From Promethearchaeota archaeon (GTDB lineage: Archaea > Asgardarchaeota > Lokiarchaeia > Sigyniarchaeales > SOKP01): a stretch of 64,000 nucleotides of DNA. Position 1 is the first letter of the stretch. Each line of letters begins with the position of its first letter. Below are positions 14,687-25,521 of the stretch, piece after piece. Below the pieces are notes generated by a model. It saw nothing but the letters and a program-made list of their open reading frames with translations, made no database searches and was not told the DNA's origin. The position numbers and the translations under genes were made by a program. Location: positions 32,001-96,000 of the forward strand of contig JAEOTR010000017.1 in the NCBI GenBank assembly GCA_016839705.1, read 5' to 3'.

Positions 14687-15688
14687 TTAATCTTCATCTT
14701 CGGACCATCCAAGTTCTTTTAGTACGGAACCTAATGTTTCTGATTCTTCTTCCAATACAAATTCTGTATCATATTCTGATGCAGAAGATTCTATATCAAA
14801 ATCAGGAGGCGCTAATTCTTCAAGAGAGGGTAAATCACTCAATGGGGGGAGTACTTCTTCTGTTGGGGTTCTATCAGGAACACTTATTTCTTCTATTGGT
14901 GATATTTTTTCAGAAACGGGCTCATCCTCAATTTCCATTGGAGCATATTCATCAAGAGGGATAGGAGGAACCTCATCATCGTATACTTCAAATTCTGGTT
15001 GAGATTCAGCTATAGGGGTTTTCTCCACTAATAATGGGGTCGTCTCGATAATTTTTGCTTCTTTAACCTCTTTTTCTATCCCCAGTCCAACGGATTTAGG
15101 GATTGAAACAATTTTAGTCGCATGAGTCGGTTCAAGTTCCTCAAATTCTTCGTCTTCCTTTTCCCAATCATCTAAAAAACCCAAAAGATCATCTAAGGCA
15201 GCTTTATCTTGTTCAACTGATGGTTTTTGTAATGTTAAAACTTCTTCCTCTTCGATTTTCTTTAATTCGGATTTTTCCAATGAAAGAACCATTTCTGTTT
15301 CTTTATCACCAGAAATTAATTTATTTAATTTTCGGGCTACTTCTCTTAAATAACCCAGATAATATCCAATTCGATAAACTGCACTTAATCCTCCAAATAC
15401 AATAAATTCATCATTAATCGCCATTAATATGCTATATCCGGAGGAGTTATGCAAAAGGATTTCCGTTAAAGCTCCGTGATCGGTTGCTTGATTTAATCTT
15501 AAACCTAAATCAATTAATGCCGTACTTGAAGCGGATGTCGCATCTGCGTCTAATTCTGAAGAGAAAGCAGTTGCTACCTTCATTCCTACCCGATCTAGAA
15601 CGATTAAATTCTCAAGATCAGTTTTATTTTCTTCCTCTTTTAAAACATACATCATTTTTTCTCTTATCTCTTCTTGAATCGACGACAT
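14687..15688 (-). CDS. Roadblock/LC7-domain protein with long acidic Pro/Glu-rich C-terminal region
   Basis: N-terminal ~125 aa roadblock pattern (IVLDRVGMKVA...SA.S..L......G.L.EILL....GY.ILM.I). Confidence 0.8.
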   Translation of the reverse strand: MSSIQEEIREKMMYVLKEEENKTDLENLIVLDRVGMKVATAFSSELDADATSASSTALIDLGLRLNQATDHGALTEILLHNSSGYSILMAINDEFIVFGGLSAVYRIGYYLGYLREVARKLNKLISGDKETEMVLSLEKSELKKIEEEEVLTLQKPSVEQDKAALDDLLGFLDDWEKEDEEFEELEPTHATKIVSIPKSVGLGIEKEVKEAKIIETTPLLVEKTPIAESQPEFEVYDDEVPPIPLDEYAPMEIEDEPVSEKISPIEEISVPDRTPTEEVLPPLSDLPSLEELAPPDFDIESSASEYDTEFVLEEESETLGSVLKELGWSEDED

Positions 15689-16615: not shown

Positions 16616-17689
16616 TTAAAAAAATATTAAAGAAACTATAAGAATATTATACAAAATATTTGTTATAAGGGTACTATAAATATTCCCATTTGTTACTTCA
16701 AAGATAATCCCAATTATTAGAAAACTAATGAAATTTAGAAAAAAATACACAGGGTTAGGATTTAATACTAACATCAAAATTGTATATGCTAAAGCTACTA
16801 TAACAATTACGTATATCCTATTTTTAAATTTCTGCTTTAATGCGTTATGTAATACGCCCCTGTATGCTATTTCTATTGAGAACGTTCCTATAACCATTAA
16901 CACTATAAGTAAGAAAACCCAGATGAAATCAGCATCTCTTATTATCTGGTTTTGCATAGCGACATCTGAAATCACACTAGATAAGTCTAATCCAATATTC
17001 GCCAAATTGTTAATTAAAGCACTAAAAAGAAAGTCGAAGAGAATTAAAAGTGCAGCGCCAATGGCACCAATAATAATACTAAATAAAATCTTTTTAGAAT
17101 CTTTAAAAAACCCTAATTTTTCAGAGCTGTGTTTCTTAGAATAAATATAATATAGAGGGTAAATACCAAATAATGCTTCAGGAATCTGGCTTATTAAAAA
17201 CATCTGGATATTTAACTCGATAGTCTCACTTCCTCCCTGAGAAACTAATAAAAAGTATATAAGAAAGAAAACAATTATGTAAATATACATACAAGTGCCA
17301 AAAACATTTAAACCTTCTCTTAGATTCCATTGGTCTTTTTTTAGAAGAAATTTTTGTTCAAGTTCCAGTTTTTTATTGGTAAATATTAAACCAGGCTTTT
17401 TTTTGATTACTTCTTTTTTTGCTTCTGAAACTCTTTCTAAAACAGTATCACAAATTGGACATTGATCTAAAATAGTTGAATTGACGAGAGACCCACATCC
17501 TGGACATTTACGAGAAATCTCAGCTTTTTGAATTGAAGTCGGTTTATAGATGATTTGTGGTTCTTTGAGTTCTTTACTCCCATTAAGTTTAATAACAAGT
17601 TTACCGCAATTCGGGCAATAGGTTTTAGTACCAACATCAGTTCCACAATAAACACAGTATTTAATTTTTTTTTCGTTGTTTTTGGACAT
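16616..17689 (-). CDS. Double zinc ribbon + CPBP-like membrane domain (catalytic residues degenerate)
   Basis: Four CxxC pairs; IEIAYRG in place of EExxFRG; NILYN in place of HxxxN. Confidence 0.72.
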   Translation of the reverse strand: MSKNNEKKIKYCVYCGTDVGTKTYCPNCGKLVIKLNGSKELKEPQIIYKPTSIQKAEISRKCPGCGSLVNSTILDQCPICDTVLERVSEAKKEVIKKKPGLIFTNKKLELEQKFLLKKDQWNLREGLNVFGTCMYIYIIVFFLIYFLLVSQGGSETIELNIQMFLISQIPEALFGIYPLYYIYSKKHSSEKLGFFKDSKKILFSIIIGAIGAALLILFDFLFSALINNLANIGLDLSSVISDVAMQNQIIRDADFIWVFLLIVLMVIGTFSIEIAYRGVLHNALKQKFKNRIYVIVIVALAYTILMLVLNPNPVYFFLNFISFLIIGIIFEVTNGNIYSTLITNILYNILIVSLIFF

Positions 17690-21714: not shown

Positions 21715-22365
21715 ATGGGCTTGAAAAAGAAGCTGTTCCCCCGCAAGGGCAAAGAAAAGGATGATTTGATTAGCAAAGCTAAGAGTCATATCCATAGAAT
21801 GAATGTAATTAATAGAAACTTTAGCAAGCGTGCTGAGATAAGTCGGAAAAATGCTAAAATTGCTTTAAAACGCGGTGAAAAAACTCGCGCAAAGAATTAC
21901 CTTATTCAATACAAATCATATACAGCAAAAGTTGATAGAACAAATAATATCAGGGGTAAGATAGAACGTCAGATTCAAGCAATTGAAGAAGGACGATTGA
22001 TCTCACAAACAGGCAATTTATTCAGTGGTATACGTGATGAATTAGAGTTTATTGCCACAAAAGCATCTCCTGCTAAGGTTGCTGAAATTGCAGAAGATTC
22101 TGAAGCATATGTGGCAGAAATTGAAGAAGCCGCAGATATTTTGGCGGGGGATCCTGAAATTGATCTTGCTATTGACGTTACAGAGGAATTGAATCAACTT
22201 GAAACTGAAATGTTGCTTGATCAAGGAGGAACTATGCCCGAAACACCATCAGATGACCTTCAGTACATACCAGAATATGATATACTTGAAGAGGATACAG
22301 AAATTAAGTCAAAGGAAAAGCTTCAAGACGAAATCGATAAATTACGTAAAGAACTTGAAAGTTAG
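21715..22365 (+). CDS. ESCRT-III protein, Snf7 (Vps20/32/60; CHMP4-7-like) family
   Basis: MGLKKKLF amphipathic start, basic N-half/acidic C-half, AK.ALKRGEK.RAK..L, DVTEELNQLE, MPETP (MIM2-like), terminal helix LQDEIDKLRKEL. Confidence 0.85.
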   Translation: MGLKKKLFPRKGKEKDDLISKAKSHIHRMNVINRNFSKRAEISRKNAKIALKRGEKTRAKNYLIQYKSYTAKVDRTNNIRGKIERQIQAIEEGRLISQTGNLFSGIRDELEFIATKASPAKVAEIAEDSEAYVAEIEEAADILAGDPEIDLAIDVTEELNQLETEMLLDQGGTMPETPSDDLQYIPEYDILEEDTEIKSKEKLQDEIDKLRKELES

Positions 22366-22406: not shown

Positions 22407-23426
22407 TTATTTAATTTTGTTCACTGCTTTAACCATATTTCTTACTTTACCTATTGAGATTTCATAGCCTTTATCTTCACCAAAAGTATCTTTTAATGGT
22501 AGAAAACCACAATCAGGTTTGATAATTAAATTTTCCTTTCCATATTGATTGATGGCTTTTTTAATATAAGATTCGAGAAAATCTATTTTTTCAATATAAT
22601 CATTAATATCATTACCATGTTCGGGTCCAAACTGTGATTTTACAGACCCCAGAGCTAAGATTTTATCTGTAGCTTCGAAATGCTCCTTCTGGAAAATCTC
22701 AAAGTTTTTCTCATTTGTTGTAAATTCATGATCTAATATTTTTACGTTAGTTTGAAGAAGAATATCTCGTAAATTTGGGCTTATCCTCCCACATACATGA
22801 ATCGAGGAGAGATTTTTTATTTCTGAAATCGATTTGTTTAAAATTTCGACTAAAAAGTCTTCAGAGTGAAATAGGGGTTTCCGTCCTACTAACACCCCTA
22901 GAAGAGGTTCATCCATAGAAATGATATCGATACCCAGATCATTATATGCTCTTCCCACCTGTTTCATAATTTCTGCAAATTTATCTACCACCCAGTCTAC
23001 CATTATTCCTCTAGGTTCTGAGAATACTCTCGGTTTGATTCCTTGAGCTATTTCTCCTTTTAGGATAATTTCAGAAGCTAATGTCAATGGACCAGTAAGG
23101 CAAGCTTTTGTTCCTTTAATCTTTTCTAAAAGTGATGGTCTCTTATTAAAATATTCATTAATAAATTCCCCGTATTCTACGGCTATAGAATTTTTGGGAA
23201 TTTTAAAATCATCGGATAAATAAAACCTCTCATCCTTTTCTTCTAATTGATTAACGCTTTTGGCTAAAGGGGATAAAAATTGACTAACCATAGAAATTAA
23301 TTGTGGATAGCATGGATAATCAATACCAATATCAATTAAATCACTAAAAATCCTTACCATATTTTCGGTATTGTTACTTAAAGGCCAGCTGCCTACGATG
23401 GTAGTGAATAATCCTTCTTTATCCAT
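22407..23426 (-). CDS. Cobalamin-independent methionine synthase catalytic-domain family (archaeal short MetE)
   Basis: TTIVGSWP, TGPLTLA, SMDEP, IHVCG, IKPDCG Zn ligands. Confidence 0.85.
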   Translation of the reverse strand: MDKEGLFTTIVGSWPLSNNTENMVRIFSDLIDIGIDYPCYPQLISMVSQFLSPLAKSVNQLEEKDERFYLSDDFKIPKNSIAVEYGEFINEYFNKRPSLLEKIKGTKACLTGPLTLASEIILKGEIAQGIKPRVFSEPRGIMVDWVVDKFAEIMKQVGRAYNDLGIDIISMDEPLLGVLVGRKPLFHSEDFLVEILNKSISEIKNLSSIHVCGRISPNLRDILLQTNVKILDHEFTTNEKNFEIFQKEHFEATDKILALGSVKSQFGPEHGNDINDYIEKIDFLESYIKKAINQYGKENLIIKPDCGFLPLKDTFGEDKGYEISIGKVRNMVKAVNKIK

Positions 23427-23505: not shown

Positions 23506-25521
23506 TTAAGTATAAAATCTTTTATTATCAAAATTCCTACTATTTTGTTTAATTATTTCTAATTCTTCTAAACTTTGCTGTAAGTTTTGTATCTTATTAT
23601 CAATTAAGTAAATCTCTTTATTCAAATTTCTATAAGTTCTAAAATAATCACTCTCTGAGATAGATCCTTGATCAAATTTTGTTTCAAGTTTCTTCAATGT
23701 AGCTTTAAGACTATATCGTTCTTTTTCAAATTCAAGCATTTGTTTTTGTTTTTCTTTATCTAATTTAAATAAGTTTCTTTTATATCCATATGATTGCTGT
23801 GCTGATGAATTTGATAAGTCGAATAAATCTGATAAGTGATTTTTGTTGAATTCTTGAAAAGATTTATCATTAAACAGGTTTTGAATTCCAATATTAGAAG
23901 CTTGTGGATAAATTCCCTGAGCTTGCTCTAAGTTTCTTGTTAGAAGATCTCTTTCATCCGCGTTTAGTAAAAGATCATTTTTATTATTAATAGCTTGAGG
24001 GATGTAATTTTGATACCTATTTGGGTCGCAAATATTTTGCGGGAAAAATTTACTTTGGCTAGGGGGAGGCATTTGATATTGATTTCCATGATTTATAGGA
24101 TTATTCAAACCTTGAGGATGTTGAACCTGAGTAGGTTGATAGTAAGTAGGATTTTGATAATAAGGATTTTGCATTCTGGGTTGGTTTAGTCCATTTTGCC
24201 CTATATGTGGATTTTGATAAAGCATGCTTTGTTGATAATTTTGAGGTACCAGATTTTGGATTTGGTTATGATTACCATAAGCATGTTGTGGTTGAAATTT
24301 ATTAAAATTAACTTTTTCATAACTCTCATTATACTGGCATTTTAGGCTAAAAAAAGAATTAATACTTTCTTCAATGAAATTGGTTAAGGAGTTTAAATCA
24401 ATATCAATTTTCTTTAGATTTGAAGCTGATTTACTGTCATATACCGTAGTCTCATCAAATGTTCTTGCTAATAGAATATATTCGATAACTCTAGAGATTG
24501 ATTTATGGGGTAAGGTGAATTCATATTTACCATACTCAAATTCTAGGTAAAGTTTTTTGAATACTTTTCCTTTATCTTTAATTCTTATTAGATCACGAAC
24601 AGGAGCTTTGAAAGTCAGAGCTTTTTTCTTTTTTCTTACACCATACTCATGAACAAAAGATAGATCTAAATTGGTAATAAATAAAAGCCCTTTATCCTTC
24701 TTAAATTTCTCTTCTATATTTAATCCATTTGTTAATTTAGCGTAAATTGCATATACCGGCTTTTCTTTTTCTGCTAGGTTCAAAAAATTCTTATAAGTTG
24801 AAAAATAAAGACTGATTTTTTCAATGAATTTTAGATTATCCTCAAATGATTTGACGCTACTCTTAAAGGTTGTCACATTATTTAATACGAATTCATTTAT
24901 CGAATTATAACTTCTTAATAAATTATCAAACAAGTTTTCTATGATTATTAAATTGGAATTAGGTTGTTTATAAATATCAAAAAAATATTCTTTATATAAG
25001 ACCATCTGATGAAAATGTGCATTAATTTTGTCAAATAAGGTATTCTGGACATATATGAATAATTTAAAAAGAGCTAGTAAATCAGATTCCATTTTAGGGA
25101 AATGATAACATCTAATAGGGGGATTTCTTGCTTTTTCAATTTCTTGTTGAAGACTAAATAATTTATTGAGAACTTCTCTTAAGGGATTAATAAAAGCACG
25201 AGAGTTTTTAATTAATTCTAAAAATTCTTTCTCTAATTCTTCCTTTTTTTCATATATGTTTATAACTTTATGAGAACCACATTTTGGGCATGATTTTAAA
25301 AGTTGGTTTGTTTTAATGATGTTCTCCTTTCCACATTCTCCACACACTTTTCTCTTATCAGAATCAGAATTCTCAATATTTTTTGAATTGCAATCTTGAC
25401 ATGTATAGAATTCAACTTTTTTTTCATGTAAACAATCAGAGCAACAACTAACACCACATTCTTCACAATAATAAGTTAATTTCACATACCTTTGACAAAA
25501 TCGGCAGACTTGTTCTGACAT
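23506..25521 (-). CDS. Multidomain protein: FYVE-like/Zn-ribbon N-terminus, helical region, PH/GRAM-like domain, Q/N/P-rich linker, steadiness-box-like C-terminus
   Basis: Six CxxC pairs in aa 6-81; KGLLFITNLDLSFV; low complexity aa ~408-560; LKKLETKFDQGSISESDYFRTYRNL. Confidence 0.6.
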   Translation of the reverse strand: MSEQVCRFCQRYVKLTYYCEECGVSCCSDCLHEKKVEFYTCQDCNSKNIENSDSDKRKVCGECGKENIIKTNQLLKSCPKCGSHKVINIYEKKEELEKEFLELIKNSRAFINPLREVLNKLFSLQQEIEKARNPPIRCYHFPKMESDLLALFKLFIYVQNTLFDKINAHFHQMVLYKEYFFDIYKQPNSNLIIIENLFDNLLRSYNSINEFVLNNVTTFKSSVKSFEDNLKFIEKISLYFSTYKNFLNLAEKEKPVYAIYAKLTNGLNIEEKFKKDKGLLFITNLDLSFVHEYGVRKKKKALTFKAPVRDLIRIKDKGKVFKKLYLEFEYGKYEFTLPHKSISRVIEYILLARTFDETTVYDSKSASNLKKIDIDLNSLTNFIEESINSFFSLKCQYNESYEKVNFNKFQPQHAYGNHNQIQNLVPQNYQQSMLYQNPHIGQNGLNQPRMQNPYYQNPTYYQPTQVQHPQGLNNPINHGNQYQMPPPSQSKFFPQNICDPNRYQNYIPQAINNKNDLLLNADERDLLTRNLEQAQGIYPQASNIGIQNLFNDKSFQEFNKNHLSDLFDLSNSSAQQSYGYKRNLFKLDKEKQKQMLEFEKERYSLKATLKKLETKFDQGSISESDYFRTYRNLNKEIYLIDNKIQNLQQSLEELEIIKQNSRNFDNKRFYT

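Follow-up and report, generated by a model that had tools for sequence, protein, structure and literature searches.

The closest described counterpart of the gene analysed here is the protein family Znr_CC_PH_SB (cog.011556), which Makarova et al. (2024; PMC10936438) described as a protein of three zinc ribbons, a PH domain, a coiled coil and a steadiness box, absent in eukaryotes and likely ancestral in Asgards. The same authors considered it a likely ESCRT-I component and expected its membrane association by analogy with Vps36. In their Table S2 the representative in Lokiarchaeum GC14_75 is a 650-aa gene located between L35Ae and metE and followed by Vps20 and DHQS, and a 2018 review gave Lokiarch_16740 as the Asgard Vps23 homologue (PMC5840170). 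Hatano et al. (2022; PMC9192718) used ThorAB25_08990, an 'SB' protein of Thorarchaeota, in two-hybrid tests; for the freestanding box protein they stated that it 'may interact with Vps28', and they reported a two-hybrid interaction of a Lokiarchaeota box protein with Vps22; their data file lists no Lokiarchaeum 'SB' sequence. Lipid-binding data on the family were not found in the literature searched.

The window (the whole 64,000-nucleotide stretch of Promethearchaeota archaeon DNA that was analysed) contains an intact open reading frame for a protein of 671 aa (Table 1). This protein is the orthologue of the listed family member Lokiarch_16740 (KKK44603.1), with 63% identity over the full length (673 columns). 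We equated Lokiarch_16740 with the entry As_004-p_01543 of Makarova et al. by organism, 650-aa length and neighbour order; the Table S2 order of L35Ae, cog.011556, metE, Vps20 and DHQS agrees with both the Lokiarch_16740 cluster contig and the window. The two orthologues share domain order, neighbours (L35Ae, metE, a Vps20-class ESCRT-III and DHQS) and proposed role, the 671-aa protein being 21 aa longer, mostly in its linker. ThorAB25_08990, though distant in sequence, belongs to the same family by profile (41-aa segment, E 1.5e-14), and the Thorarchaeota member that was checked has a short linker (61 aa) and a gene within the main ESCRT cluster. Because Makarova et al. list the family of Lokiarch_16740 and Hatano et al. 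used a Thorarchaeota member of it, the statement in the preliminary description that no account of this architecture was known is wrong. Gene, architecture, neighbourhood and ESCRT-I interpretation are all published, and the discovery value is therefore small. The family remains a good experimental target, and the present work makes small additions: a zinc region modelled as a cross-brace finger with a nested ribbon, the lineage-specific nature of the linker, and a box modelled onto Vps28 via aa 623-642.

Table 1. Position of the gene, its neighbours and its protein segments in the window, and of related genes elsewhere (prefix L, locus).
Feature	Position	Strand	Basis or remark
Whole gene, 671 aa	23506..25521	-	Lokiarch_16740 orthologue, family Znr_CC_PH_SB (cog.011556); identity and gene order
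Zinc module, aa 6-88, modelled as cross-brace two-zinc finger	25258..25506	-	Invariant Cys, model, VIA, Pfam zf-B_box
Nested zinc ribbon, aa 34-76 (C41/44, C60/63), on long beta hairpin	25294..25422	-	Strands, structural matches, Pfam
Three long helices, aa 89-242 (published 'coiled coil')	24796..25257	-	AlphaFold2 model, pLDDT >90
PH-fold domain, aa 243-360, PH-GRAM-like, net basic	24442..24795	-	VIA, Pfam, net charge
Two helices after PH domain, aa 363-399, conserved	24325..24435	-	Model; absent from the preliminary description
Low-complexity Q/N/P/Y linker, ~aa 400-584	23770..24324	-	Lineage-specific
Steadiness box, Vps23-type helical hairpin, aa 585-655	23557..23769	-	Pfam, profile, co-fold
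metE-core gene between the two ESCRT genes	22407..23426	-	Pfam Meth_synt_2; missing here in many relatives
ESCRT-III gene, Snf7/Vps20 class	21715..22365	+	Pfam Snf7 E 7.9e-9; conserved neighbour
Protein with box-like C-terminus	L037:5547-7091	-	
Protein with box-like C-terminus	L038:5399-7249	+	
Protein with box-like C-terminus	L039:5146-6528	+	
Protein with box-like C-terminus	L040:5485-7515	-	
601-aa fused homologue, zinc-helix-PH-WH-WH (G112)	L087:8401-10206	+	
Fused homologue (G103)	L103		
Fused homologue, truncated (G120)	L104		

The gene is single copy in its own genome, and 58 of the 61 relatives had a full-length homologue. With a profile of aa 1-400, matches were obtained in 246 of the 301 Asgard genomes, with very few exceptions one per genome; since the non-matching genomes include incomplete ones and several small families, they are best described as genomes in which the family was not found among those searched. 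L35Ae lies upstream of the gene, and downstream of it stands the metE-core gene and then the convergent Snf7 gene, the positional counterpart of Lokiarch_16760. The preliminary description thus correctly placed the gene one gene away from Snf7; the intervening metE is restricted to some members of the window's own family. Among 60 loci hand-picked across the phylum, some of them incomplete, with related loci non-independent and one or two adjacent Snf7 matches being short ORFs, 47 had Snf7 encoded within 5 kb and 28 had it no further than 250 bp away, so that the conserved ESCRT linkage on which the preliminary description had staked its reading is present. In several distant lineages, the gene is located inside the main Vps22/Vps25/Vps4/ESCRT-III cluster. 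With the queries used, the 93%-complete own assembly yielded no Vps22, Vps25, Vps4, second ESCRT-III or UEV-Vps23; because two flanking housekeeping genes are missing as well, the missing main ESCRT locus is probably an assembly gap rather than a loss. Two other genes of the window may be mentioned here. One at 14687-15688 (-), 6 kb from Snf7, codes for a Roadblock/LC7-like domain (E 0.009) and a long tail rich in acidic residues and proline. In the product of the other, at 16616-17689 (-), a double zinc ribbon is joined to a membrane domain resembling CAAX proteases (Rce1), and Table S2 of PMC10936438 has a zinc ribbon-Rce1 protein near the Lokiarchaeum GC14_75 locus also.

As in the published family, the protein carries three zinc sites (six CxxC pairs) at its N-terminus, a helical region followed by a PH domain, and a C-terminal steadiness box. 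For the box, Pfam Vps23_core gave E 8.6e-4, with a score under the curated cut-off, while the family C-terminal profile searched against the PDB returned yeast Vps23 first (E 7.6e-7) and TSG101 fifth (7e-5), with weak matches to Vps37B and Vps28; the same profile also matched ribophorin 8whn (1.7e-5) and designed coiled coils. The steadiness box proposed from the sequence alone is therefore upheld, with the boxes of Vps23/TSG101 as its best counterparts, and a generic coiled coil or SHOCT domain was rejected for this region because Vps23 structures lead the profile list. Scores of at least 25 bits were obtained in 51 of the 60 sampled homologues. Distant members of 472-553 aa (in L083, L084, L085, L094 and L066) have a helical C-terminus with a weak or no box-profile score, and the hairpin may be degenerate in their lineages.

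The box profile also found the N-terminal hairpin of the own genome's Vps28 (E 3.5e-4), a protein identified by Pfam VPS28 at E 1.3e-8. Co-folding two box copies with aa 1-112 of this Vps28 gave 0.66, compared to 0.27 for the best control. This passes the mark, which 58 of 80 solved pairs and 2 of 110 mismatched ones had attained and which is rough here given the use of own alignments and two copies. At least 75% of contacts were common to the runs, the partner pLDDT was at least 71, and in the predicted interface box aa 623-642 face Vps28 aa 10-26. Since similar ESCRT-I headpieces have been solved (2f66, 2caz and 6vme, all matched by the C-terminal profile) and the co-fold may pass by reproducing them, we take this result, which the preliminary description had asked for, as one of likeness rather than of proven binding. 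At the Vps28 locus (L036:9729-11353, contig C87) there are no other ESCRT genes; the gene directly upstream, on the same strand, encodes a zinc-ribbon Yip1-like membrane protein. A box-like hairpin also terminates four more proteins of the genome (profile E 3e-8 to 3e-3), one of which begins with a helix-hairpin-helix, another with an IFT52/GIFT domain, while a third has a weak nucleotidyltransferase match; these could be competitors for Vps28.

At the N-terminus, the six CxxC pairs are C6/9, C19/22, C27/30, C41/44, C60/63 and C78/81, and all 12 of these Cys are invariant across 71 homologues. Modelled alone, the zinc module reached a pLDDT of 85.6 with strands at 32-41 and 68-77. In VIA, cross-brace fingers (TRIM B-boxes, RINGs and ZZ) aligned to residues 1 to ~100 with the middle skipped and 40-60 residues matched, whereas simple zinc ribbons aligned to residues 34-76 only, a segment in which Pfam A2L_zn_ribbon also matched (E 9e-4). 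We infer that C6/9, C19/22, C27/30 and C78/81 are the cross-brace ligands. Taken together, the model and the matches suggest one cross-brace finger into which a ribbon is inserted, instead of three ribbons in tandem, which departs from the three zinc ribbons of the published family description (PMC10936438) and agrees with the preliminary description as far as a CxxC..CxxC ribbon inserted into a FYVE-like spacing is concerned (cross-brace 1 to ~91, ribbons 34-76). The most frequent Pfam matches of the module were B-box families, namely zf-B_box in 15 and a second family in 9 of 66 members. The B-box pattern is CxxC-x7-12-CxxC-x4-CxxC followed by two His ligands; the first six ligands of the module agree with it, whereas the two His are replaced by a CxxC located behind the inserted ribbon. 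An eight-Cys FYVE-type cross-brace likewise fits the spacing and the nested model, yet every structural match of the module had a VIA Z below 5 and most were to B-boxes or RINGs, with nothing at E <0.001 in Foldseek and no FYVE chain among the VIA top 50, the latter being no argument against FYVE by itself. A weak profile match to the EEA1 FYVE domain was obtained (E 0.054). The R(R/K)HHCR patch, already noted as missing from this copy, was absent from all 73 homologues, as was RVC at the corresponding positions, and WxxD is impossible before C6 in the 671-aa copy because only five residues precede the first Cys. With R(R/K)HHCR and RVC lacking in the 73 homologues and B-box matches dominating, the FYVE label cannot be upheld as a functional one.

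An AlphaFold2 model of aa 1-400 built from 73 sequences (pLDDT 92, pTM 0.80) resolved, in order, a beta-rich zinc region (1-88), helices (89-242), a PH domain (243-360) and two further helices. The long helices span 89-132, 144-181 and 188-242, where a helical or coiled-coil segment at aa ~90-245 had been predicted. The best VIA match of the PH domain was the MTMR2 PH-GRAM domain (Z 13.3, rmsd 2.9, 107 aa), and a Leishmania domain (Z 13.1) and Lam6 (12.9) were also matched. GLUE structures aligned at Z 10.3-11.5, human EAP45 GLUE (2hth_B) giving Z 11.5 and rmsd 3.4 over 103 aa, so that PH-GRAM stands ~2 Z units higher. Pfam matches across 66 members were to bPH_3 (23), GRAM (7) and Vps36 GLUE (2). 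VIA and Pfam thus agree on a PH-GRAM/GLUE type that is not specifically GLUE; the PH-GRAM-like fold expected of a Vps36 GLUE domain is there. Of the PH/GRAM/GLUE-like pattern with a basic loop that had been proposed for aa ~249-353, the PH fold, on which the reading of the middle domain was to stand or fall, and the basic loop (~aa 292-303) were found, and the specific GLUE identity was not. The domain has a net charge of +11 and is positively charged in most members and neutral or acidic in a few. A DH-PH RhoGEF, which nearly all Foldseek top 50 entries for aa 1-400 represent, was rejected given TM 0.22-0.29, an rmsd of ~20 A and a VIA alignment mostly to the PH part; BAR-PH, considered because of the three long helices, had no entry in the VIA top 50.

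The linker between these 400 residues and the box has 52% Q/N/P/Y over residues 406-560, in accordance with the ~150-aa Q/N/P/Y-rich segment described previously. Its length varies from 7 to 437 aa across 66 homologues (7-61 aa in distant members). No P(S/T)AP, PPxY or YPxL was present in the linkers of ten copies checked (the 671-aa copy and nine others), nor GPYP in that of the 671-aa copy. A region that is not conserved and has no PTAP in the copies checked gives no support to an Hrs-like P/Q part of an ESCRT-0.

In comparison with eukaryotic subunits, the 671-aa protein resembles Vps23/TSG101 and Vps37 in having a C-terminal steadiness box behind a proline-rich tether, and differs from them in carrying a zinc module and PH domain instead of a UEV and in placing its long helices before the linker, where those subunits have a stalk adjoining the box. 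In the model, the zinc module, the helices and the PH domain take up residues 1-400, and no UEV was found among the 25 Pfam families shown for 66 members. With Vps36/EAP45 it shares a PH-fold domain and zinc fingers in an upstream ESCRT subunit; its PH is, however, unsplit and closer to GRAM types, without NZF inserts, and the zinc sites are N-terminal. The tandem winged helices of Vps36 are not in the 671-aa protein, whose C-terminus is the box; the only homologue with an EAP30 match is the fused one of another genus. Hrs/Vps27 is comparable in its cross-brace Cys spacing and P/Q-rich region, and differs in its VHS domain (none was found here in the fold or the Pfam scan), its PI3P-binding motifs, its P(S/T)AP and the linker, which is not conserved here.

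We consider it likely that the gene, the Lokiarchaeia orthologue of this pan-Asgard family, encodes a non-UEV archaeal ESCRT-I subunit whose box plugs into the Vps28 headpiece and whose tethered N-terminal unit is probably membrane-bound. The membrane-targeting ESCRT-I-type subunit of the preliminary description is in this sense well supported and equals the published reading, given the Vps23/TSG101-like box, the Vps28 co-fold, the PH domain and the Snf7 linkage. In the modelled arrangement the box would insert into an ESCRT-I-type headpiece together with the N-terminal hairpin of Vps28, and a rigid N-terminal unit of 400 residues (zinc module, helical bundle and basic PH) would sit at the end of a flexible tether. 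The PH domain most likely binds an anionic membrane lipid, which the PH fold alone is not enough to show, and the zinc module most likely binds a protein partner or cargo; lipid, cargo and cellular process are all inferred. In eukaryotes this job falls to other subunits, e.g., the Vps36 GLUE domain. A family this widespread is the obvious candidate for bringing Asgard ESCRT-I/II to the membrane in organisms that have neither a GLUE-bearing Vps36 nor an ESCRT-0.

Four other readings were weighed against this. The preliminary description had united ESCRT-0 (FYVE and an Hrs-like P/Q region), ESCRT-II (GLUE) and ESCRT-I (box) in one chain of undescribed architecture, and three observations speak for such a combination: FYVE-like cross-brace fingers could have this Cys spacing and this nested topology, EEA1 was matched weakly, and GLUE structures aligned. 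It is largely refuted and now scarcely credible: the architecture was already published, the FYVE lipid motifs are missing and B-box families prevail, PH-GRAM outscores GLUE, and the linker shrinks in distant members and lacks PTAP; the ESCRT-0 component is unsupported in view of these motifs, VHS and the unconserved linker. Less improbable, though still unlikely, is a reading in which the box has the N-terminal hairpin of Asgard Vps22 as its main partner, the protein anchoring ESCRT-II as a stand-in in trans for Vps36 GLUE and not being core ESCRT-I. Asgard Vps22 proteins fused to a steadiness box are on record (PMC10936438), the two-hybrid interaction with Vps22 (PMC9192718) points the same way, the box-bearing neighbour in Thorarchaeota-type loci is Vps22, and one genus fuses the N-terminal unit directly to a Vps22-type core; the co-fold with Vps28 and the closeness of the box to Vps23/TSG101 argue against it. 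The Vps22 and ESCRT-I readings are not exclusive.

The structural neighbours of the zinc module, TRIM B-box-coiled coils and RINGs, would also suit a RING/B-box ubiquitin ligase or ubiquitin sensor, a TRIM-like scaffold that marks or catches ESCRT cargo, and the legend of Fig. S8 in PMC9192718 names RING, CC and PH among the domains of Asgard ESCRT-I-like proteins. We regard this as distinctly unlikely, as none of those neighbours reaches Z 5 and as 73 of the 76 genomes of family f12 have retained the gene, a family that contains a record from Thorarchaeota, a group reported to be without ubiquitin. Very unlikely, in our estimation, is a CdvA-like role, in which a self-assembling membrane marker would recruit ESCRT-III directly for cell division without ESCRT-I. 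CdvA hairpins are relatives of the steadiness box and Zn ribbon-coiled coil-CdvA proteins exist in Thermoproteales (PMC10936438), and the most constant neighbour of the gene is an ESCRT-III, often directly convergent; that same convergent orientation argues against co-transcription, and Vps23 is the best match of the box, which is modelled onto Vps28.

Regarding the ESCRT-I subunit that we prefer, its N-terminal unit is found in a further context. In the genus of G103, G112 and G120, the homologue lacks the box and ends in a Vps22-type pair of winged helices (EAP30 E 1.8e-11) that matches eukaryotic Vps22 (5.5e-6) better than Vps36 (3.4e-3), and these genomes keep a separate 248-aa Vps22 beside the fused gene. 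Only three clusters, all of this one genus, carried the fusion in the searches made, and it looks like a local fusion mimicking the Vps36 plan; joining the N-terminal unit to a Vps22-type core supports a role of that unit in upstream ESCRT. We also considered, as an unlikely scenario, that archaeal upstream ESCRT is anchored to the membrane mainly by this near-universal single-copy subunit and that the PH domain of the subunit was the source of Vps36 GLUE, joined to a Vps22 duplicate in eukaryogenesis. The PH-winged-helix join of one genus makes such a step feasible and not thereby ancestral. Searches of the ESM Atlas with the aa 1-400 model additionally returned a Chloroflexota cluster of 295 aa (TM 0.53/0.68 over aa 84-356), a further Chloroflexota cluster of 572 aa with GRAM/Vps36 Pfam matches and a Bathyarchaeia cluster of 351 aa, and thus the helical-bundle-plus-PH unit may exist outside Asgards without the box.
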